Origin: a virus
Taxonomy: Duplodnaviria; Caudoviricetes
DNA length: 52,222 nucleotides
Strand: one strand, 5' to 3'
Virus record (IMG/VR): IMGVR_UViG_3300043409_000384
Span: 1 to 52,222 of that record
The notes beneath the pieces are model-generated. The model made no database searches, had not been told where the DNA came from, and saw nothing but the letters and a program-made list of their open reading frames with translations. A program made the position numbers and the translations under genes. This document shows, in pieces, positions 1 through 41,449 of this stretch. Numbering within the stretch: position 1 is the stretch's first letter; every line of letters begins with the position of its first letter.

Positions 1-57
1 TAGTATCTCAATACTAGATCAAGACCTATATGAAAATTAAATTTTTAAAGAACTGTG

Positions 58-107
58 TTAATTTCTTAACTTAACTCTAGTATAGCACCTTTACCATTTC
101 TGGACAA
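58..107 (-). promoter_or_regulatory. Putative sigma70-type early promoter (copy 1) with conserved downstream box
   Basis: Minus strand TTGTCC-N17-TATACT with extended -10 (TGC-TATACT), followed by AGAGTTAAGTTAAGAAATTAA. Confidence 0.65.
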
Positions 108-149
108 CTGTTATTTTCAACTGTTGCGTTTGTGCTACACCAGGTTCAG

Positions 150-199
150 TTAATTTCTTAACTTGCCTCTAGTATAGCAACGATTCCTTTAATGAGCAA
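150..199 (-). promoter_or_regulatory. Putative sigma70-type early promoter (copy 2) with the same downstream box
   Basis: Minus strand TTGCTC-N17-TATACT followed by AGAGGCAAGTTAAGAAATTAA; near-identical to copy 1 from the -10 onward. Confidence 0.65.
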
Positions 200-220
200 G
201 TAATACTTTTGTTTGCAACA

Positions 221-301
221 TGGTACCCCGGGTGAGATTTGAACTCACATTAAAATTTCTCCTTTTGAGAGAAACGACTTTGCCAATTTGTCTACCGGGG
301 C
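221..301 (-). tRNA. tRNA-Leu(CAA)
   Basis: Acceptor GCCCCGG/CCGGGGT, discriminator A plus encoded CCA, anticodon loop CT-CAA-AA, T arm GTGAG-TTCAAAT-CTCAC; variable region only 9 nt. Confidence 0.85.
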
Positions 302-304
302 AAT

Positions 305-380
305 TGGTAGCAACGGCTGGACTCGAACCAACCACACACGGATTTTCAATCCGTTGCTCTACCTGATGAGCTACGTTGCC
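305..380 (-). tRNA. tRNA-Phe(GAA)
   Basis: GGCAACG/CGTTGCT acceptor, ACGGA-TT-GAA-AA-TCCGT anticodon arm, GTTCGAGTCC T loop, encoded CCA. Confidence 0.95.
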
Positions 381-423
381 GTTTAATTTAAATTCAACAA
401 AAATGTTAACAATAAATAAATTT

Positions 424-1185
424 ATGTCAAACTATGATTATAAAATTTTCGATGATGCCATACCAGTTGAATTACAACAACAAGTATGGGACTATATGCA
501 ACATCAAGTTTGGTATGCATACCCGCGCGGTCATCAACTACTAAGATTTATACCAAATCGACACGGTTTGGATTTTCCAGAAAAAATGGAAAATGTTGAA
601 AATGGATCTTTTATGAGTAGGACTGCTTTTGCATTAGATGCACCAAGTCTTGAAAAAAATCATCCGTTAATACACACATTATGGAAAAATATAAACAAGT
701 TACACAATGATATATACGACTTAACCGGGCCAGGCGAGGGCATAAGAACCAGACCTGTAACCAATGACCAAAGTAGTATACCTGGATTAGACCCTGGGTG
801 GAGAGTATACACAAACGGTCAAGGATCAGAAAAAATAAAACGTAGTCATGGCATACACCGTGATAATATCAACATGAATGATGATAGCACTAGAACTATT
901 GTGTATGTTGCAAATATGCAGTGGCTTCCAAGTTGGATGGCTGAGTTAATATTCTATGGTGAAGATCCAGACGGCACAACACACGATCATCAGCAACACC
1001 AAGAAGCAGTTGGCGGACACACGCAACGTCGTAATTTTAAAATAGGGTGGCCCACTGATATTATTGCGGCAAAACCCGGAAGGATTATATCCTATGATGG
1101 TAGAATGTTACATACCACAAAACCCACGAGCATATTTGCACCACACATGCGTATTACTATTGCGTTTAGAGCACGTTTAAAATAA
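424..1185 (+). CDS. 2OG-Fe(II) oxygenase superfamily protein
   Basis: HxD (IHRD), distal His (MLHTT) and RxxxxF (RITIAFR) in DSBH-like spacing; start moved to ATG 424, which follows TAAATA and avoids overlap with tRNA-Phe. Confidence 0.8.
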   Translation: MSNYDYKIFDDAIPVELQQQVWDYMQHQVWYAYPRGHQLLRFIPNRHGLDFPEKMENVENGSFMSRTAFALDAPSLEKNHPLIHTLWKNINKLHNDIYDLTGPGEGIRTRPVTNDQSSIPGLDPGWRVYTNGQGSEKIKRSHGIHRDNINMNDDSTRTIVYVANMQWLPSWMAELIFYGEDPDGTTHDHQQHQEAVGGHTQRRNFKIGWPTDIIAAKPGRIISYDGRMLHTTKPTSIFAPHMRITIAFRARLK

Positions 1186-1187
1186 CC

Positions 1188-1277
1188 TGGCGGAAGTGGT
1201 AGGATTCGAACCTACGGACCTTGTCAAGTCTTTAGTTTTCAAGACTAATGCAATAAGCCAGACTCTGCCACACTTCC
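1188..1277 (-). tRNA. tRNA-Ser(TGA)
   Basis: GGAAGTG/CACTTCC acceptor, G discriminator plus CCA, TTAGT-CT-TGA-AA-ACTAA, long variable arm, GGTTCGAATCC. Confidence 0.95.
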
Positions 1278-1375
1278 GTATTCATAAACACACTGGTCCT
1301 TATCGATCCGGTCAGTGGATCCGCGTCAGTGCCTATGCACCCGCCGCTTTCGTCATCCGATGTGTTTATGAATAC
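1278..1375 (-). ncRNA. Putative structured ncRNA B of unknown family, abutting the 5' end of tRNA-Ser
   Basis: Perfect terminal stem GTATTCATAAACACA/TGTGTTTATGAATAC enclosing GC-rich hairpins GTGC-ATAG-GCAC and GATCC-ACTGACC-GGATC. Confidence 0.55.
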
Positions 1376-1515
1376 CCAGTATTGCTACTGGATATGTCGG
1401 GGTTGATACCCCGACCAGGAGTCTATTGTTCCACAAATGGAACTCCATGTATCCTGTCCGCCCGTTTAGGCATGTTTAGAGTGCGCCCGGGACCTCGTTC
1501 CCCCACACTACATAT
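1376..1515 (-). ncRNA. Putative structured ncRNA A of unknown family
   Basis: Dense run of hairpins: GTGTG..GGGAAC-GAG-GTCCC..CGCAC, GGAGT..ACTCC with GTTCCA-TTTG-TGGAAC as an inner or alternative helix, GTCGGGGT-ATCA-ACCCCGAC, CCAGTA-GCAA-TACTGG (GNRA loop); GC-richer than the flanks. Confidence 0.5.
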
Positions 1516-1519
1516 ACTG

Positions 1520-1684
1520 TTAAGTATAGATTTGTTTGCGTTCCTGAATCCTAGGTTGCATACGCATACGCTCGGCACGCTCTAACTTTGCTCGAATCAA
1601 CTCGTGTAGTTGTTCTTTGGTTAAAGTATGCTCACGCACATACGCCTGCTCTCTGGGACTAAGTTTTCTTTTATTATCTGTCAT
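1520..1684 (-). CDS. 54-aa basic small protein (MTDNKRKLSPREQAYVREHTLTKEQLHELIRAKLERAERMRMQPRIQERKQIYT)
   Basis: Translated by hand (below the ORF-track cutoff); SD-like AGGA 5 nt before the ATG; first gene after the attenuator terminator. Confidence 0.7.
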   Translation of the reverse strand: MTDNKRKLSPREQAYVREHTLTKEQLHELIRAKLERAERMRMQPRIQERKQIYT

Positions 1685-1693
1685 TGTATTCCT

Positions 1694-1729
1694 AAAAACA
1701 AAAAACCCTAGGGTTTTTAAGCCTAGGGT
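1694..1729 (-). terminator. Intrinsic terminator of a putative attenuator
   Basis: ACCCTAGG stem pairing with CCTAGGGT, followed by a U tract TTTTTGTTTTT. Confidence 0.85.
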
Positions 1730-1779
1730 CCTGGAGTTGGTGTGTACTATGTTAGTTACACGATGTCCTCCTGGACCCT
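1725..1779 (-). promoter_or_regulatory. Antiterminator hairpin overlapping the terminator 5' arm and the end of the leader ORF
   Basis: AGGGTCCAGGAG (1779-1768) pairs with CTCCAGGACCCT (1736-1725), 11 of 12 pairs, plus inner GTGTA/TACAC stem; mutually exclusive with the terminator. Confidence 0.8.
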
Positions 1780-1890
1780 GGTAATCTCTGGTGTGCGATC
1801 ATTACTTAGATTCGCAAACAGGCACCAATAGGCTGTTAGGCCTAACTGGGGCATCTGTTTTGGTGAATGTAAGGATAATGTTTGCATCAT
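1756..1890 (-). CDS. Putative 44-aa attenuator leader peptide (MMQTLSLHSPKQMPQLGLTAYWCLFANLSNDRTPEITRVQEDIV)
   Basis: ATG 7 nt after a consensus -10; contains all 20 amino acids; stop codon lies inside the antiterminator hairpin. Confidence 0.75.
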   Translation of the reverse strand: MMQTLSLHSPKQMPQLGLTAYWCLFANLSNDRTPEITRVQEDIV

Positions 1891-1897
1891 AGTGTCT

Positions 1898-1926
1898 ATT
1901 ATACTTTATTTATCTTTTGTTGTCAA
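1898..1926 (-). promoter_or_regulatory. Consensus sigma70 promoter with an embedded late-type ATAAATA
   Basis: TTGACA-ACAAAAGATAAATAAAG(17)-TATAAT. Confidence 0.9.
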
Positions 1927-1931
1927 TGACT

Positions 1932-2843
1932 TTATTTGATTTTGGATAAAATCTTTTGAACTCGTTGTCGCTCGGTAGTCAGGAATTGATGTGTATTATA
2001 CAACTGTTGTCTATCTGTGTCAACTCCTATCCGAACAAACATTTCTGGATCTTCTCCGAGTGATCGACTAAGTGCGGCACGTATGATAGCCAATGTGCGC
2101 GGATCTGCTGTACTGTTGGCCATTAACACCAACCAATTGGGACTGACTTCAAAACCACGTATGCCTTGTTCTTGTAATGTAGGAATACCCGGAAACTCAC
2201 GACTACGCCGTGTGCCTGTTACTGCCAATACTGTCACAGGTTGATCTTTTGCCACGCCCACGCCTGTGAACAATACCGTAATGTTGTTGCTGAGTATGTC
2301 TGTCAATGCGGCGGCCTCACCTCGGTAAGGGACATGAACCATTTGCACACCAGTTTTAATACCAAATAATTCCCCAGCAATGTGTGTGGCCGCACCGTTA
2401 CCACTGCTACCAAAGAACACAGGATCCCGTGTTGCCAACAACTTTGGCATGGTATTAACTGCACTCTTTGGATTTGTAATCAGGGCCAACTGTACTGTGC
2501 CCAGGGTGGCAACAGGCTCAAACTCTGCTAAATTGTACACACTATCGGCCTGTAGACTGTTTACCACCACAGCCAGGCTATGAATCAACAAAATAGTTTC
2601 AGATCCACGACTTTTTGCCACATAATTGGCACCTATGGCGCCACCTGCGCCTGCACGGTACTCTATTACATACGTATTCTGTGTATGCGTAGTTAGTGCT
2701 CGTTCTACAACGCGAGCGGCTTGATCTGCCGCACCACCAGGGGCAAATGGTACTACAATCCGAATTGTGTCTGCTTGAACAACACTACTGACCAAGATCG
2801 TAAGGCTGACTATAAAACCTTTTAAAACCTGAGTAAATGTCAT
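1932..2843 (-). CDS. Bug/TctC-family tripartite tricarboxylate transporter substrate-binding protein
   Basis: Signal peptide, then IVVPFAPGGAAD, GAGGAIG, GSSGNG, HVPYRG, PTLQEQG motifs typical of Bug proteins. Confidence 0.9.
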   Translation of the reverse strand: MTFTQVLKGFIVSLTILVSSVVQADTIRIVVPFAPGGAADQAARVVERALTTHTQNTYVIEYRAGAGGAIGANYVAKSRGSETILLIHSLAVVVNSLQADSVYNLAEFEPVATLGTVQLALITNPKSAVNTMPKLLATRDPVFFGSSGNGAATHIAGELFGIKTGVQMVHVPYRGEAAALTDILSNNITVLFTGVGVAKDQPVTVLAVTGTRRSREFPGIPTLQEQGIRGFEVSPNWLVLMANSTADPRTLAIIRAALSRSLGEDPEMFVRIGVDTDRQQLYNTHQFLTTERQRVQKILSKIK

Positions 2844-3918
2844 TGGGGTTAACTTTCCATTTGTTTGGCATAATACGCCATATATGTTCTAGGCCTGTAC
2901 GCCATGAGTACTTAGCCGGATCTGTGTCTGGCAATTTAAAAAACCATTCGTCCCTAGGTGTAAAAAATAAACTAGGTGCTTTGGCTTGGTATGGCACTGG
3001 ATACCATCCGGGATAGATCAATTGACTAATACCATCTACATTTAAGTAGTAGTATTGTTTGCCAATTTTCCGCCCCACAATATTCTTTTCATCTGTTGTG
3101 ATGTAAGGACTTGTGGGGGTTGCTAACTTCATGTAACGCTTAATAACATGGCTTTGTTTGACTGGAATCAGCAGAGCATCGGGACTCCAATAAAACATTT
3201 CATCAAACTCCCAGGGACGATTAAGCATCTGAGTGTTTCCACTGACTGCGGTGTCTACCATGTCAGTGAATGTAAAGTAGTAACGCCCTTTAACCTCTTG
3301 CACACGTGGTTTGTCAATTCCGTGTATAAAACACACACGCCTGCCAGCATTAATCATGTCACGCCAATGCGGTTCACGCAACTTAATATCCTGCTTGGCC
3401 GCATTATTGGGGTTAAGATATCCATTCATATGGTATATCCAATCAAACTTAGTTTCTTTAGCAGTAAAGTGATCTAGTGTTTGTTTTGCTAAATCAATAA
3501 TAGTGTGCTTGATCCAGGGTTGCTTTAATCTAGCAGTTTCTACTTTGGGTTTGGCCACATGATAGATTTCTCCATTTAAGAAGTTGGTCTTATCGTGTGT
3601 TGCCTCGTAGTTGACTTGACTAGCAACTTCATCTAGTTTGATGTTATTGTTGATGAATGTATTAAGAATGTTACTACTATCTGCACCGCCGCTAAACCAA
3701 AGTACAATGTAATCGTATTTGTCACGGATCTGTTGGGCACGTTGACGGTAGAGCTCTTCTAGCGTCTCGAGTGGCTCTACCCGCCAATCGACTGTGTTAA
3801 ATACAGCATCGTTAAAATCCCATTTTAAAGGTAATCCCACACGCTCGTGCTCGTGTGCGGCTTCTAACTTGCTGAAAAACTTCGCATCGCCAACTCGATA
3901 AAACCCAAACTGTTCCAT
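2785..3918 (-). CDS. PP-loop (adenine nucleotide alpha-hydrolase / asparagine synthase-like) protein, paralog 2
   Basis: FSGGADS PP-loop, GIDKP and FYW motifs shared with the adjacent gene. Confidence 0.7.
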   Translation of the reverse strand: MEQFGFYRVGDAKFFSKLEAAHEHERVGLPLKWDFNDAVFNTVDWRVEPLETLEELYRQRAQQIRDKYDYIVLWFSGGADSSNILNTFINNNIKLDEVASQVNYEATHDKTNFLNGEIYHVAKPKVETARLKQPWIKHTIIDLAKQTLDHFTAKETKFDWIYHMNGYLNPNNAAKQDIKLREPHWRDMINAGRRVCFIHGIDKPRVQEVKGRYYFTFTDMVDTAVSGNTQMLNRPWEFDEMFYWSPDALLIPVKQSHVIKRYMKLATPTSPYITTDEKNIVGRKIGKQYYYLNVDGISQLIYPGWYPVPYQAKAPSLFFTPRDEWFFKLPDTDPAKYSWRTGLEHIWRIMPNKWKVNPNDIYSGFKRFYSQPYDLGQ

Positions 3919-5102
3919 TAGCGCATTAAGTCCAACATGGCGTCCGTATTGACAAAGTCAGCAGGACCTAGGTCATAGAAGGTATCCATAAAGCCAGTAA
4001 AACCCACAGGTCGACCCATTTCGTAGGTAAAGAATTTGGGATCAATCTTATCTACCATGTGTGCCACACCGGCTTTCCATACTTCGTAGAAGCGAGTTTC
4101 TGAAAAGTTCTTAAAGAACCACCAGCCCATTTCACTGTAGAAGTTGTTGGTACTTTTCATTGTTTGCCAGGTGGTGGGATCGTAATCTTCATAGATCAAC
4201 GGACGGGCAATCTGTTCGTAGGCGTTGCGCTGTGCAGGACTGTGATTGGGCCAACGCATTAAAAACTGCAAATGCTTAGTATGTGGTAACTGGAACCAAT
4301 TACGAATAGTATGTGCCTGTTTGATAATCAATTCAGGGATGTCTGGTTGCCAGTAAAAATATTCTGTAGTCAAGTTGGTGTAAGGACCGATTGTGGGCTG
4401 ACTGTGATTGGCCTGTATGTCCAAGAAGTACAAGTACCAACGGCCATCTCGAATACAAATTTTAGGTTTGTCAATACCGTACAGTATACAAATACTCTTA
4501 CCCGACTCGGCCAATTGTTTGTGTCCATCTAGGCCCAAGGGATCGTGTTTGAATGTGTGTTCAGGATGCAGATAGTCTCTAGCACGTTCTACCCAGGACT
4601 CATCGCCCTTGTAGTCCAGTATGTTTTGACTAAAGTCATGCATGGTGATTTTGATTGTGGGATGACTGATGGCTAATTTTTGCAAGATGGGCTTGGCCGC
4701 AAAGTGCCATTCACTCAAGGTGTTTTCCGCTTTCATATTCTTGGCATCTGGTCCAAGATTCTTGTCACCCTGTGCAGGATAACGAAACACCACTTCGTCT
4801 AGGTGTATACCATTGTTAATAAAACTATACAACACCGTTGCACTATCACTGCCGCCTGAGAACTCTAGACGAATGTAATCGTATCGGTCTCGTAATTGTC
4901 GGGCCCGCATACGATACAGTTCACGCAGACTTGTTTCGGGTTCTATGGTTGTATCTATTCGACTGTATACTTCTCTGTTGAAGTTAAAGTGCGGAAAGTG
5001 TCCAGTAGCTGTGGCTTCCAATAAGGCCTGTGGCTTGCTGTAGAATCGTTTATCACCTACGGTGTAAAAGCCTAGTCTGGGATTTTGTTCTAGTGTTTGC
5101 AT
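3918..5102 (-). CDS. PP-loop (adenine nucleotide alpha-hydrolase / asparagine synthase-like) protein, paralog 1
   Basis: FSGGSDS PP-loop, LxELYRxRAxQxRDxYDY, GIDKP; stop/start overlap with paralog 2. Confidence 0.7.
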   Translation of the reverse strand: MQTLEQNPRLGFYTVGDKRFYSKPQALLEATATGHFPHFNFNREVYSRIDTTIEPETSLRELYRMRARQLRDRYDYIRLEFSGGSDSATVLYSFINNGIHLDEVVFRYPAQGDKNLGPDAKNMKAENTLSEWHFAAKPILQKLAISHPTIKITMHDFSQNILDYKGDESWVERARDYLHPEHTFKHDPLGLDGHKQLAESGKSICILYGIDKPKICIRDGRWYLYFLDIQANHSQPTIGPYTNLTTEYFYWQPDIPELIIKQAHTIRNWFQLPHTKHLQFLMRWPNHSPAQRNAYEQIARPLIYEDYDPTTWQTMKSTNNFYSEMGWWFFKNFSETRFYEVWKAGVAHMVDKIDPKFFTYEMGRPVGFTGFMDTFYDLGPADFVNTDAMLDLMR

Positions 5103-5107
5103 ATAGT

Positions 5108-5182
5108 TGGTCCGGCGTAGAGGAATCGAACCTCTATAATGACTTTAGAAGAATCATGTCCTATCCATTGAACGAACGCCAG
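5108..5182 (-). tRNA. tRNA-Arg(TCT)
   Basis: CTGGCGT/ACGCCGG acceptor, TGATT-CT-TCT-AA-AGTCA, GGTTCGATTCC, encoded CCA. Confidence 0.9.
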
Positions 5183-5186
5183 GATT

Positions 5187-5435
5187 TCATTCTACCTGTT
5201 GTCTTTGCCTTAAGGCCATGCCTGCGTAAGTGCCAACAGCCGCTCCCATCAGTGCTGGAATTATAGCCCAATGATCTTCGGTATAACTGATGACGGTTAT
5301 GGTTGCTGTAAGGGTAACCAGTACAGACCAAAAACTGGCCTGCATTGGCCGATTGTTTTGAACAGCCTTTATAAAATATACATAAAGTATATCGGTTGCA
5401 AACACAGCAAAGAATGTGATAATGTATGTTAACAT
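5187..5435 (-). CDS. Small membrane protein, about 3 hydrophobic helices
   Basis: 82 aa with three hydrophobic segments, lying between two tRNAs. Confidence 0.75.
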   Translation of the reverse strand: MLTYIITFFAVFATDILYVYFIKAVQNNRPMQASFWSVLVTLTATITVISYTEDHWAIIPALMGAAVGTYAGMALRQRQQVE

Positions 5436-5453
5436 ATAAACTTGATTGAATTT

Positions 5454-5530
5454 TGGTACGCCGAGTAGGGCTCGAACCTACGACCAAAGGATTATGAGTC
5501 CTCTGCTCTGACCAACTGAGCTATCAGCGC
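5454..5530 (-). tRNA. tRNA with CAT anticodon, probably Ile2 (lysidine-type); Met not excluded
   Basis: GCGCTGA/TCGGCGT acceptor, GAGGA-CT-CAT-AA-TCCTT, TGGTC variable loop like bacterial Ile2; lacks initiator features. Confidence 0.85.
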
Positions 5531-5539
5531 GATATGTAT

Positions 5540-5568
5540 ATTATATACTAAGAGTCTTTAGTTGTCAA
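5540..5568 (-). promoter_or_regulatory. Consensus sigma70 promoter for the CAT/Arg tRNA unit
   Basis: TTGACA-N17-TATAAT ending 9 nt upstream of the tRNA. Confidence 0.9.
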
Positions 5569-6947
5569 GCAGGTCTAAAGTCGAAAACGTATTTCTGATT
5601 GATACCACTTGCATAGTAGCTCTTGCCTGCTACCAATGCTATTGAGCCTTCAAAGTTTGGAGGATACACTGGCTTGAATTCGGTAATCTGCACATCATCA
5701 CCTACTGCTTTGGCCTGTGTGTATAGTTGCATCATACTGGCATAGTTCAAAAATTGCACACATCCTGCGCTAAAGTCGGGTGTGCTGTTGACATGCTGTG
5801 CAACTCGACCTGCAATGGCACTCAGTACCCAGTAACCATAATTCCAACCTGCGGCTGATTTCATTTTAAATGCTTCAGTCCAGGGTTGAGTCCAGGCAGG
5901 AGGATTTTCTGTGGTGTGTTCTTTGATCATGCGCTTGACATCTGCGGCTTGATCTACTGTGATAAATTTGTAGTCCTGTGCCAACAACAACGGTCCGTCT
6001 TGCATGTTGGCTTCAGCAATTTTCTTAACCAGGCTTGCCGCGATGGGAAACTCAGCTTCTAGGTCTTGTCCAGCTTTCTTTGCATTGGCAATACCTTCTA
6101 ACAAGTTACGCACACTGGCCGGAGCTCCTTTGGCTCCTTTACTGCTGACGCCAAGACTGAAATTGCCTGCACGAAGATAGAAGTCCACTAGGCCAAATGT
6201 TTTACCCTGTGGGAAATGCACAGCAAGTTTCTGCCATGGTGTATTGTTAAGAATCTTTTTACGAGCCTGATCAGCTTCGCCGCCCACCATGCCATATGTT
6301 AAGGCAATGCTTTGTAGCACTTCACCCAGGTTGTCACGCACCGCTTCCAAGTTTGCGGCTTCACCGGCAAATACGGGCAACTTTTTCCGAGCCATCATGT
6401 TGATGCCGTCTTTGATGGTTTGCTGAAGTGTGGTCACACCATTGATGTGTTTCAACAACTCCGCACCGTTGGTGGCTGTGTCAACTGCACCAAGAATGTC
6501 TTGTGGCTTGAAGCCGGCACGAGCTTTTTTGCTGGCTTTTAGTTCTGGACGCAGTCCGGGCACTTCATTATTGTCCCACTTGTGCATCATGCTGGGAAGA
6601 ATTTCGTCAAAATACTTGCCAAAGTACACAGGTTTACCATCACCGCCAACAAATTGTGCTAGACCAAAACCACGATGGCGTGGGCCCATGCGATTTGCCC
6701 AAGTGATAGGACGACCACTTTGTTGTTGTACTTGTTTGTCCACATGTACAACATTGGCTTGTAATTCTGCGGTATCTGCAAACTGTCCTCGTTGTGGATA
6801 GTTTTGTGTGCCAGCAAATTGATAAGGTGCGCCTACTTCTGCGCCAAATGTATTGTTGGGCACCGCAGTAAACGCAGGATCCATTGGGCTACGAGCATAG
6901 ATTCCGCGGCCTTCTGATACTGTGGCAATAACTTCAAAAATCTTCAT
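5565..6947 (-). CDS. Hypothetical protein, possibly virion-packaged (MKIFEV N-terminus)
   Basis: 460-aa ORF preceded by late-type TAAATA; N-terminus resembles those at 19720 and 33238. Confidence 0.75.
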   Translation of the reverse strand: MKIFEVIATVSEGRGIYARSPMDPAFTAVPNNTFGAEVGAPYQFAGTQNYPQRGQFADTAELQANVVHVDKQVQQQSGRPITWANRMGPRHRGFGLAQFVGGDGKPVYFGKYFDEILPSMMHKWDNNEVPGLRPELKASKKARAGFKPQDILGAVDTATNGAELLKHINGVTTLQQTIKDGINMMARKKLPVFAGEAANLEAVRDNLGEVLQSIALTYGMVGGEADQARKKILNNTPWQKLAVHFPQGKTFGLVDFYLRAGNFSLGVSSKGAKGAPASVRNLLEGIANAKKAGQDLEAEFPIAASLVKKIAEANMQDGPLLLAQDYKFITVDQAADVKRMIKEHTTENPPAWTQPWTEAFKMKSAAGWNYGYWVLSAIAGRVAQHVNSTPDFSAGCVQFLNYASMMQLYTQAKAVGDDVQITEFKPVYPPNFEGSIALVAGKSYYASGINQKYVFDFRPA

Positions 6948-13002: not shown

Positions 13003-13604
13003 AATTTTATTGAATACTCAATTATTTCTTTGTATACTGTGGGATAGATTTGTTTTATAGTTTGAACAATAGTGTCAAACGTAACTACTTGTCCTACTAA
13101 TGTTTCAGTTAACACTTTGTCTATTGACAAGTAGAAGTGTAATCGATTGTTGCTCTTAAAAAATGCATCTAATGTTGGATCCACAGGTCTACTGTGCCAA
13201 TGCTGATCCGTTATTTTATTAATTTGACTTATTGGTAGTAGTTGTATTTTACCACGATTAAATCGTTGTAAATTTAAAAGCCAATGAAATTGTGGAACAT
13301 AGTGCCTGTTCAAAAATAGGTATTCATTGATAAATTTCAATGCGGTATATCTATCAACTTTAGGATCTTCATTTAGTGTATATTCTAAATACGAATGCAC
13401 ACCGGATAAAAATCGTTCGTACGGATCACGGACAAACACATCAACTTGTGATATATTACTTATGTCAGTTACTGATTGAAATCCAGACTCGTATAAACTA
13501 CTGCTTCCATTTTTGTAGATCGGAAAGACATACCGCTGTGAAGGTACTATTTCTAGTATATCACAGCGGTCGGGAAATATTATCGGATCAAGATACGATA
13601 ACAT
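12984..13604 (-). CDS. Sulfotransferase family 2-like protein
   Basis: PIYKNGSSSL (5'-PSB-like), FVRDPYERFLSG (3'-PB-like), HYVPQ. Confidence 0.7.
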   Translation of the reverse strand: MLSYLDPIIFPDRCDILEIVPSQRYVFPIYKNGSSSLYESGFQSVTDISNISQVDVFVRDPYERFLSGVHSYLEYTLNEDPKVDRYTALKFINEYLFLNRHYVPQFHWLLNLQRFNRGKIQLLPISQINKITDQHWHSRPVDPTLDAFFKSNNRLHFYLSIDKVLTETLVGQVVTFDTIVQTIKQIYPTVYKEIIEYSIKLCGALD

Positions 13605-36116: not shown

Positions 36117-36183
36117 AAGTGCGTATTATACGATAAAAGCCAATACATGTCAAACCCATAAATACTACAATATAGGATGAAAC

Positions 36184-39829: not shown

Positions 39830-41449
39830 TTATCGGTAAATGTTATCTTTAAGAAACTGATAGTGTGTAGGCAGTGTTTTAATGTGCTCTAGTACTTCAT
39901 CGCGGTGTTTTAACCAATTATCGTAAACAGGTTGGCGTATCGCTGGACTTTCGTTGACTTTACGGTCCTGGTAGCGTATAAAATTAGCTTCAATCGGGTT
40001 ATACCCCATACCTGCCGCAATGTAAATAATACCGCCCATGTTGTTGTCAAATTGCCGTGACCTATGCAATCTAAATCCCAAATCAGTTGAGCTTTTTACA
40101 TCGTGATCTAGTCCCGCAAGATTTATAGTGCTGTTCATTGCTCTCGAATACTTGGTCGAGCCTGATACTTCTTTCCAATAAGCAGTATCATTGCGTAGGC
40201 TTAGTGCATAGTGCTGACTAATAAAGTCTTTGAATCCCATGATCTGTTCTTGGAATCCGTAGTTAAACAAATCAACATCGTAGTCGCTAACAACACCGTC
40301 GCGCATCAACAATGTACTACACAGTTTAACAATGCCTTCGTGTGTCAACATCAGTCCTGTACTCTCCAATGGTTCTATAAAGCCATTGGCTAGACCAATG
40401 CCTACTACGTTCTTAACCCAGGCATGTTCGTGTACTCCGTGGCGTATTTTGATATGGCGGAACTCGCAAGCATCTGCACGATCAGCATCAGGAAACATCA
40501 TACGATTGCTTTTCAAATGCCGACGTAACTGTGCTTCTGCTTCATCCTCTGTGGCATGTTTGCTACTGTATACATATCCTGTGCCAATACGATTCCATAA
40601 TGGAATATTCCAAACCCAACCTGCTTCAATGGCGGTACAACTTGTGTAGTTTTCCATTTCTGCTTCTTGATCAATGTAGGGAATAACTGTGGCAACTGCA
40701 CGATCGTTTAGTAGCGTATCGTTGAAACTAATAAACGGTTCGTTTAGAGTTTGATCTAGCAGTATGCTTTTAAATCCCGAACAGTCAATAAACAAGTCTG
40801 CATGAACATGTTTGCCATCTTTGGTGATAATCTTTTCAACGCTGTTATCTTCACGCTGTACTACATGCTCTACTGTGTCTGTTAGATGTGTCATGCCCGC
40901 AGGTGAACAAACATTATCACGTAGCCAATTGCCAAACAGGGCCGCATCCATGTGATAAGCCGTGTCTTCGGCAAAGTTAAATCCACGCACACGATGATCT
41001 TCATTGCGTGTCATCTTGTTTTGATCTGTCATCAATATTGCATCATGATAAAACTCTGCAAAATTTTGTGGATCAATGGCAGGATTGTCTGCACGGGCCA
41101 AGAACCATTCCATTGGCCCACGTGGCTTGTCAGTAAAATCAAATATGCCAAACGGATAATGAAACTTGTGTGGTTCTTGTTTGGGATTCTCTCTAAAGTC
41201 AACAAACTTGATACTGGTCTTGTATGTGGCATTACATGCCGCCATCCAATCTTCATCTTGTAGCCCCAGCATGACTAAAAATTGATTGATGTGTCCGATT
41301 GTGCTTTCACCTACACCTATTGTGGGAATGACATCACTTTCTACCAGGGTAAGTTTAATGTTGGGGCAAAGACGTGTAATACCCGCGGCTGTCATCCATC
41401 CCGAGCTTCCCCCGCCAACAATACAAATTGATTTTACATTATGGTGCAT
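39830..41449 (-). CDS. Flavin-dependent tryptophan halogenase-family protein
   Basis: GGGSSGW, IGVGEST, ATYKTSIKF (catalytic Lys region), FIDCSGF, GWVWNIP, FIEPLESTG. Confidence 0.92.
   Translation of the reverse strand: MHHNVKSICIVGGGSSGWMTAAGITRLCPNIKLTLVESDVIPTIGVGESTIGHINQFLVMLGLQDEDWMAACNATYKTSIKFVDFRENPKQEPHKFHYPFGIFDFTDKPRGPMEWFLARADNPAIDPQNFAEFYHDAILMTDQNKMTRNEDHRVRGFNFAEDTAYHMDAALFGNWLRDNVCSPAGMTHLTDTVEHVVQREDNSVEKIITKDGKHVHADLFIDCSGFKSILLDQTLNEPFISFNDTLLNDRAVATVIPYIDQEAEMENYTSCTAIEAGWVWNIPLWNRIGTGYVYSSKHATEDEAEAQLRRHLKSNRMMFPDADRADACEFRHIKIRHGVHEHAWVKNVVGIGLANGFIEPLESTGLMLTHEGIVKLCSTLLMRDGVVSDYDVDLFNYGFQEQIMGFKDFISQHYALSLRNDTAYWKEVSGSTKYSRAMNSTINLAGLDHDVKSSTDLGFRLHRSRQFDNNMGGIIYIAAGMGYNPIEANFIRYQDRKVNESPAIRQPVYDNWLKHRDEVLEHIKTLPTHYQFLKDNIYR

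Follow-up and report, generated by a model that had tools for sequence, protein, structure and literature searches.

What controls the expression of tRNA genes carried by a phage? Phage-encoded tRNAs are common, in jumbo phages especially, and to our knowledge the control of their expression is largely unknown. The question is raised by a short leader element upstream of a tRNA array in the viral record IMGVR_UViG_3300043409_000384 (Duplodnaviria; Caudoviricetes), of which positions 1 to 52,222 were analysed; this whole stretch of 52,222 nucleotides (nt) is referred to as the window. The record is estimated to be 15% complete and encodes a tail sheath of the myovirus type and a terminase. An earlier note on this DNA had proposed that the leader is an attenuator which senses ribosomes and controls the tRNA genes behind it. 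Our analysis, which deals with sequence throughout, points to the same kind of element: with a probability of about 0.7 it is a ribosome-dependent (leader-peptide) transcription attenuator gating the phage tRNA array, which probably lets the phage raise its own tRNA supply when translation falters. This reading builds on the anatomy of the element, its conservation, the covariation and mutual exclusivity of its two hairpins, the selection for all 20 amino acids in its reading frame and its position at the head of tRNA arrays.

Anatomy of the leader

The leader consists of a promoter, a short open reading frame (ORF) and two overlapping hairpins, the second of which is a terminator. Its parts, and a second promoter further upstream, are the following:

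1898..1926, minus strand: sigma-70 consensus promoter (TTGACA 1926-1921, a 17-nt spacer with the conserved GATAAATAAA, TATAAT 1903-1898)
1995..2023, minus strand: second promoter with a perfect consensus, 97 nt upstream of that of the leader, within the 3' end of a TctC-like gene and conserved in relatives
1756..1890, minus strand: leader ORF, from the ATG at 1890 through 44 codons to the TAA stop at 1758-1756
1768..1781, minus strand: antiterminator 5' arm, CC-AGGGTCC-A-GGAG, within codons 37-41 of the leader ORF
1742..1761, minus strand: hairpin inside the antiterminator loop (GUGUA...UACAC), present in minimum free energy (MFE) structures and containing both the final sense codon and the stop
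1722..1736, minus strand: antiterminator 3' arm, CTCC-A-GGACCCT-A-GG, of which 1722-1728 (CCCTAGG) doubles as terminator 5' arm
1694..1728, minus strand: intrinsic terminator (CCCTAGG 1728-1722, a 9-nt loop, CCTAGGG 1712-1706 and TTTTTTGTTTTT 1705-1694, that is T6-G-T5)

The perfect TTGACA-N17-TATAAT promoter described in the earlier note is indeed present at 1926-1898, and the ATG at 1890 follows 7 nt past the -10 hexamer. Judged by this very short spacing, the leader mRNA of the window is probably leaderless. The 52-kb window contains four perfect promoters of this type, as against 0.02 expected from shuffles; the three others, all on the minus strand, are at 1995-2023, 5540-5568 and 36125-36153, and one of them directly precedes tRNA-Met. 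The GATAAATAAA motif in the spacer occurs a single time in the window and was carried by all 24 loci then compared.

A recount of the leader ORF gave the same figures as before, namely all 20 amino acids encoded by 32 distinct codons, with TTA three times, CTA twice, ACA three times and AGG once, and with 17 amino acids present by codon 32. Towards the end of the ORF, AGGGTCCAGGAG (1779-1768, codons 38-41) pairs with CTCCAGGACCCT (1736-1725), so that the last codons form the 5' arm of a hairpin whose other arm overlaps the 5' arm of the terminator. This arrangement is as the earlier note had it, apart from one A.A mismatch that it did not mention. The leader stop codon is located within the loop of this hairpin, the antiterminator, and pairs of the form xTGTAA...TTACAx that resemble its inner loop hairpin were seen by eye, uncounted, in relatives. 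The antiterminator has a predicted stability of about -27 kcal/mol and the terminator one of about -10 (-9.7) kcal/mol, while the complete leader folds at -62 kcal/mol (z = -4.4), which none of 200 shuffles equalled. The terminator has a G+C-rich stem of 7 bp and occurs only once in the window; a generic terminator scan missed it because that scan permits loops of at most 8.

A family of elements at the head of phage tRNA arrays

Relatives of the element were gathered in three ways: by the neighbouring 54-amino-acid (aa) protein encoded just past the terminator, by an 18-mer from the core of the ORF, and by a structure-only pattern made up of the hairpin arms and the terminator tail. The protein search led to five related contigs, and promoter, ORF, hairpin and terminator are present in all five. 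The 18-mer matches 69 viral stretches and the structure-only pattern at least 120. Since the exact 18-mer is missing from 93 of the 153 unique contexts that match the pattern, its invariance is an artefact of the first search. We kept 141 unique elements from viral and metagenome contigs, mostly of jumbo phages and many of them 300-400 kb long. Membership in this set requires an ORF of 30-62 codons with its stop between the hairpin arms, and the ORFs of all 141 elements (median 47 codons) cross the 5' arm and end in this way; when a strict longest-ORF rule was applied to the 153 contexts, the stop fell inside the loop in 144 of them, mostly 14-18 nt past the 5' arm.

Rows excluded from the set were L001 and L002 (copies of the window), L097, L101, L142 and L180 (one unrelated GC-rich gene end) and L179 (unrelated). 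Alignment A2 comprises 100 of 102 representatives drawn from the 141 elements, L070, which is cut by the locus end, and L098 being omitted. A further stretch, L178 (about 6250-6490, plus strand), is a probable member in which the stop overlaps the first bases of the 5' arm; its ORF of 39 codons has all 20 amino acids, so that dropping it worked against the attenuator interpretation.

With regard to genomic position, a tRNA gene on the same strand lies within 1.5 kb downstream in 102 of the 109 elements that have at least 1.5 kb of downstream sequence. At least three tRNAs follow in 59 of the 63 elements with at least 4 kb downstream, and the median is 19 tRNAs within 6 kb. Directly downstream of the element, on the same strand, lie 26 of the 27 tRNA matches of one complete genome and 28 of the 32 of another. 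The pattern matches exactly once in four of five complete jumbo genomes, and the fifth carries a GGGTTCC/GGAACCC variant, which is a compensated change. The element stands at the tRNA-array head of many giant freshwater phages, and the geometry of a trp/his-type attenuator upstream of tRNA genes, which the earlier note had drawn from a single copy, is found throughout the family apart from the first hairpin of that type.

A scan of genome contigs gave 52 stretches, approximately the number estimated by chance. Two of the stretches are family members on short contigs of metagenome-assembled genomes (L235, binned as Polynucleobacter, and L216), the binning being too weak to name a host. A DNA similarity search against cultured phages returned nothing relevant. 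The closest cultured relative by the large terminase is Pseudomonas phage PA5oct (54% identity), in which 12 tRNAs have only plain promoters upstream and no all-amino-acid leader was found.

Two more of the 52 stretches are GC-rich analogues (0.57-0.60), on contigs binned as Verrucomicrobia: L194 1942-2011 (plus strand) and L209 7177-7246 (minus strand). Each has an ORF of 58 codons, with all 20 amino acids in L194 (from an inner ATG) and 19 in L209. Their hairpin, GGGTCCACG/CGTGGACCC, overlaps a different terminator of 10-11 bp, which is followed by 10-12 tRNA genes.

Two mutually exclusive hairpins

In 14 close relatives the antiterminator is predicted at -22 to -31 kcal/mol and the terminator at -10 to -12.5 kcal/mol. 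The base 5' of GGGTCC and the base 3' of GGACCC form A-U in 85, G-C in 36 and G.U in 16 of the 141 elements, and the pair is broken in 4. As the base 3' of GGACCC is also paired in the terminator in all 141, there is three-way covariation at the base shared by the two structures. In the 100-sequence alignment the antiterminator is 96.9% paired, its free pair being AU in 48, GC in 31, GU in 15 and other in 6 sequences, and the terminator is paired in 96.8% of cells, with two-sided changes in four of its seven pairs. Each structure beat 500 of 500 shuffles, both in percentage paired and in covariation score, as well as all slid controls. These comparisons argue that both alternative structures are under selection.

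Folding of the individual sequences indicates how a ribosome could choose between the two. The MFE structure of the free RNA contains the antiterminator in 122 of the 141 elements. When a ribosome footprint was placed at codon 21, the antiterminator still formed in 123 elements, whereas a footprint at the stop codon gave the terminator in 109. It should be underlined that these constrained folds speak to geometry only, that is, a terminating ribosome masks the antiterminator strand and an upstream stall frees it.

Amino-acid composition of the leader peptide

All 20 amino acids occur in 105 of the 141 elements (101 of 133 distinct peptides), and most of the others hold 19. This frequency is far above that in every control:

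Random draws from the family's own composition: 3.9% with all 20
Windows of 44-52 aa from the proteins of the window: 0.8-2.7% with all 20
Other two frames of the leader DNA: 0 of 133 with all 20
Other six-frame ORFs of 40-60 aa in all compared loci: 74 of 2511 with all 20 (3 of them unrecognised leaders)
Similar-sized ORF immediately after the terminator: 1 of 96 with all 20

Shuffling residues within alignment columns yielded only 20.9 +/- 3.9 rows with all 20 amino acids (maximum 35), compared with 101 observed among the 133, which means that a residue lost at one position is matched by its presence elsewhere. The leaders contain about one each of the 20 amino acids, with a mean of 1.02 copies for Cys and 1.09 for Trp, and no run of any codon, of the kind that is regulatory in attenuators, was found in the leader. 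In the 115 rows with a single Cys, this residue turns up in 26 different alignment columns, and a FastTree tree requires at least 45 moves between columns; the numbers of moves for Tyr and His are 21 and 33, all of these counts being somewhat inflated by alignment noise and by a tree that was built from the element itself. Moreover, all 20 amino acids precede the 5' arm in 89 of the 141 elements. The composition thus appears to be under selection, with presence kept and position free, which is as predicted for a leader that samples codons and not for a folded protein.

The earlier note had named three properties to be checked in relatives, and each was found: the length of the ORF and the position of its stop are conserved in the 141 elements, the all-20 composition exceeds its controls, and covariation is seen in the antiterminator and the terminator alike.

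A model for control of the tRNA array

The model that best accounts for these features is as follows. Transcription would begin at the consensus promoter, and the 44-codon leader would be translated while it emerges. A ribosome that reaches the stop codon in the hairpin loop would hold the 5' arm, so that the terminator forms and the RNA ends before the 54-aa gene, a structured RNA and the tRNAs. With no ribosome, or with one stalled at any codon upstream of the arm, the much stronger antiterminator would form instead and the polymerase would read through into the array. The new tRNAs would then relieve the stall and restore termination, closing a feedback loop. Translation of the leader ORF, the deciding role of ribosome position, the direction of the regulation and its physiological trigger are all parts that we infer.

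As the leader has about one codon per amino acid, a shortage of almost any charged tRNA would raise read-through. More tentatively, and at somewhat less than even odds in our judgement, the element may act as a pan-amino-acid sensor, in which one leader samples every charged tRNA and thereby governs how far the phage's near-complete tRNA set is transcribed. Depletion of host tRNAs, or their cleavage as a defence, would in that case switch the array on, and this stress-responsive unit would include the structured RNA and the 54-aa protein. If this reading holds, the supply of phage tRNAs is under demand-driven, self-correcting control, with translation feeding back on tRNA production by the phage. 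Among leader-peptide systems the element, which precedes arrays of up to about 30 tRNA genes, would then be the first known to sense translational supply in general. The model also bears on the counter-measures of phages to defences that target tRNAs, and the element could serve as a compact synthetic-biology part that reports a shortage of any charged tRNA.

Several observations weigh against the attenuator model or limit the evidence for it. With regard to the structures, the search pattern itself dictates three pairs of the terminator and all but one of the seven pairs of the antiterminator, and these are uninformative; the pattern scan contributed the matches listed (at least 120), and the copies are phylogenetically related. 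The terminator is the MFE structure in 19 of the 141 free RNAs, and the antiterminator persists in 31 of 141 with a ribosome at the stop. No conserved pause hairpin or hairpin of the 1:2 type was found in a rough alignment of the broad family, and candidates are predicted in the close clade only, where they do not covary. With regard to initiation, the leaderless start put forward earlier is suggested by the spacing in the window and is not general among relatives: only 45 of 138 have a promoter whose end is within 12 nt of the ATG (mostly 6, 7 or 10 nt), and another 60 have a purine-rich run resembling a Shine-Dalgarno sequence instead of a leaderless-type start. Transcripts from the second promoter (1995..2023) would furthermore give the leader ORF a 5' untranslated region with neither a Shine-Dalgarno sequence nor a leaderless start.

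The composition of the leader also has features that fit less well. One to three amino acids are missing from 36 of the 141 leaders. All 20 lie at least 12 nt before the arm in only 15 elements, and 19 do so in 77; Glu, from a conserved DRTPE motif, is the residue most often confined to the last part. In the leader of the window, every Val lies in the arm or beyond it, and Glu and Ile are no more than 12 nt away from the arm. Residues found only in or near the arm may go unsensed, and under the simple model this leader could not sense all 20 amino acids. The match between leader codons and the anticodons of the array (0.72) is not enriched over that of ordinary genes (0.735), and amino acids missing from the leader coincide with tRNA types unseen in the locus in two of eight cases, the arrays being cut by locus ends. 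In 12 close relatives the coding signature is weak, as judged by a ratio of nonsynonymous to synonymous polymorphism (pN/pS) of 0.65, against 0.96 and 0.73 in the other frames, and by variable sites numbering 20, 22 and 24 of 42 at the three codon positions.

Metatranscriptome contigs overlap 1693-1971, and two exact 151-nt X15 contigs correspond to 1693-1843 and 1821-1971. The terminator and the conserved core are covered at high depth by short contigs. Six RNA-library runs match all or part of the region, and four of them were compared. Neither transcript ends nor strand nor level can be read from such contigs, which may also stem from carried-over DNA. They give no expression support to the model, and the parts that they leave uncovered say nothing against it.

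Alternative explanations

The conserved core of the peptide could mean that the ORF is kept for its product. It might encode a small trans-acting protein, followed by an ordinary leaky terminator; the hairpin would then serve only to stabilise the mRNA at its 3' end, and no regulatory meaning would attach to the all-20 composition. One Trp column is retained in 118 of 119 single-copy rows, the DRTPE motif is conserved, and the leader peptide has been called as a gene in three public clusters, all unnamed; no Pfam or PHROG family was found for it. Such a protein fails to explain, however, why single-copy Cys, Tyr and His relocate and yet are retained, or why the stop always lies between the arms and the shared base covaries with both of its partners. 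It also leaves unaccounted for an antiterminator two to three times more stable than the terminator and a single pattern match, at the tRNA-array head, in four of five complete genomes. Coding selection on residue identity is weak as well, and we regard this explanation as distinctly unlikely. The same core might instead act within the ribosome, W...DRTPE(I/L) stalling it from the exit tunnel on one specific signal (a metabolite, factor or drug); a stall beside the 5' arm would then set termination and the all-20 composition would be secondary. The position of DRTPE, 6-12 nt before the arm in most members, would suit such an arrest, as would the fixation of Trp in one column and the identity of the DRTPE-encoding 18-mer in 69 viral stretches. 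Yet in the pattern-based sample the motif varies (DRLPE, DRGSE, NRELG) and is absent in short members (...NGRVNSIPGDPGSV), while the architecture and the near-complete sets of amino acids persist; CGC/CGT synonymous changes occur, and the relocating single-copy residues stay unexplained. We consider arrest on a specific signal unlikely as the main principle, and within the attenuator model the conserved W...DRTPE core may add a peptide-specific pause.

The switch might also work without regard to the peptide. RNAalifold places upstream hairpins, built from bases that do not vary, in the leaders of the window's clade, and the core has hardly any variation at synonymous sites, as if the 5' half of the leader were an aptamer, or a site bound by a protein or tRNA, that chooses between antiterminator and terminator, the ORF being incidental. 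These hairpins show no covariation, however, no consensus structure emerges in the broad family, and there is no Rfam match. In addition, all 141 unique copies keep the leader frame open, whereas stops interrupt the other frames, ORF indels in the close set are multiples of three or compensated, and the all-20 composition would have no explanation, which together makes an RNA-only switch highly improbable. It is also conceivable that the attenuator is real but reports overall translation capacity, that is, the availability of ribosomes or initiation (for example in host shut-off or with time after infection), not individual charged tRNAs. The antiterminator is the default fold without a ribosome (122 of 141), and a third of the members have a leaderless-type start, leaderless starts being dependent on 70S initiation. 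A capacity sensor needs no particular composition, though, and selection for all 20 amino acids would be left unexplained; we judge it very unlikely.

The downstream unit and neighbouring genes

Downstream of the terminator the window contains the following features:

1520..1684, minus strand: 54-aa ORF, the first gene past the terminator, with its own AGGA Shine-Dalgarno sequence at 1693-1690
1278..1519, minus strand: conserved structured non-coding RNA between the 54-aa ORF and tRNA-Ser, about 240 nt long (200-250 nt across the family)
1188..1277, minus strand: tRNA-Ser(UGA), the first tRNA of the array
305-380, minus strand: tRNA-Phe(GAA)
221-301, minus strand: tRNA-Leu(CAA), soon after which the contig ends

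The small ORF and the Ser, Phe and Leu tRNAs agree with the earlier description, which had in addition counted two structured RNAs where we find one of about 240 nt. Across the family a small ORF is usual between the terminator and the first tRNA. Relatives of the 54-aa ORF have 52-93% identity to it, and neither Pfam nor PHROG gave a match; some relatives of the element lack this ORF, and in these the structured RNA directly follows the terminator. The 5' motif of the structured RNA is present in 122 of 125 elements. In 47 diverse copies RNAalifold gave 27 pairs, 24 of them with two-sided changes, together with conserved loops (AACGAGG and CACUnUAAAC) and the junction AAACGGGCGG. Searches of Rfam with 1-6000 at E up to 1 and with 1270-1930 at E up to 10 gave nothing above chance level for either the leader or the structured RNA. 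Because no promoter-like site was found between the terminator and tRNA-Ser in the window, the unit of 54-aa ORF, structured RNA and tRNAs would need read-through for its expression.

The array of the relative L005 continues to 17 tRNAs. In the window a 269-aa ORF (376-1185, plus strand) with a weak PHROG match to endonuclease V (phrog_274) lies between tRNA-Ser and tRNA-Phe; since these two tRNAs are adjacent in L005, the ORF may be a mobile insertion in the array. In L008 (5401-5490) and L021 (6585-6670) a second promoter with the GATAAATAAA spacer is followed after 6 nt by a mini-ORF of 15-16 codons. This mini-ORF holds UUA and AUA codons and ends a few nt before tRNA-Leu(UAA) and tRNA-Ile(UAU), which read those codons, with no terminator in between. 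In L057 the Rfam model of permuted tmRNA scores 55.4 bits (cut-off 47) at 13167-13331 on the minus strand, about 4.5 kb upstream of that phage's attenuator; the match is truncated by the end of the locus.

Directly upstream of the leader, a gene for a solute-binding protein of the TctC/Bug family (1932-2843, minus strand) is host-like (Pfam E 3.5e-30), and so is a tryptophan halogenase gene at 39830-41449, minus strand (E 3.5e-113). Two adjacent look-alike ORFs of 377 and 394 aa (2785-3918 and 3918-5102, minus strand), which have an SGGxDS motif in common and no match in Pfam or PHROG, sit between a tRNA-Arg/Met pair and the TctC-like gene.

Comparison with known systems

A full-text literature search, with most subscription journals outside its scope, found no all-amino-acid leader or attenuator before phage tRNA arrays. 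The nearest parallels are bacterial. In the trp, his, pheA, thr, leu and ilv attenuators of enterobacteria, complete translation of the leader leads to termination and an upstream stall to read-through, and no leader-peptide attenuator is known to sense more than a few amino acids. Leader-peptide attenuation also precedes aminoacyl-tRNA synthetase genes, as in pheST with its pheM leader and similar cases. The pheL and trpL leaders are the subject of PMC3082878 and PMC6614838. The amino-acid-operon attenuators and the phage element share a short leader ORF, an intrinsic terminator and an antiterminator that uses a strand of the terminator. In the former, one or a few cognate codons are repeated in runs and the targets are biosynthetic enzymes, whereas in the latter each of the 20 amino acids is represented by about one codon and tRNA genes follow. 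In contrast to the trp/his type, no conserved first hairpin (the 1:2 pause or anti-antiterminator hairpin) was found for the phage element, and superattenuation would therefore not be expected when translation is absent. As in pheST/pheM, part of the translation machinery would be under leader-peptide attenuation, but there a single amino acid is sensed and a host enzyme gene is controlled in place of a tRNA array.

Two other kinds of system are comparable. T-box riboswitches sense the charging of tRNA and switch between antiterminator and terminator before translation-related genes, and in the ermCL, mef/mel, vmlR, bmrCD and toiL-topAI leaders an upstream ORF turns ribosome stalling into read-through or translation downstream. 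A T-box binds one uncharged tRNA directly through a specifier loop and a conserved T-box sequence and has no ORF, whereas the phage element has one; a T-box identity was rejected for the leader, as the Rfam searches described above gave no T-box match. Leader ORFs on which antibiotics stall the ribosome are the subject of PMC4335068 and PMC9226507. These antibiotic-sensing leaders respond to stalling without specificity for a single amino acid, as is proposed here for the phage element. Unlike it, they detect drug-bound ribosomes at particular peptide motifs, control bacterial resistance genes and have no all-20 composition.

Taken together, the sequence comparison places the phage element among leader-peptide attenuators by its structure, with the cognate-codon run that defines them missing. 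It is the all-20 composition, in place of such a run, that sets the phage element apart from the known leader-peptide attenuators.

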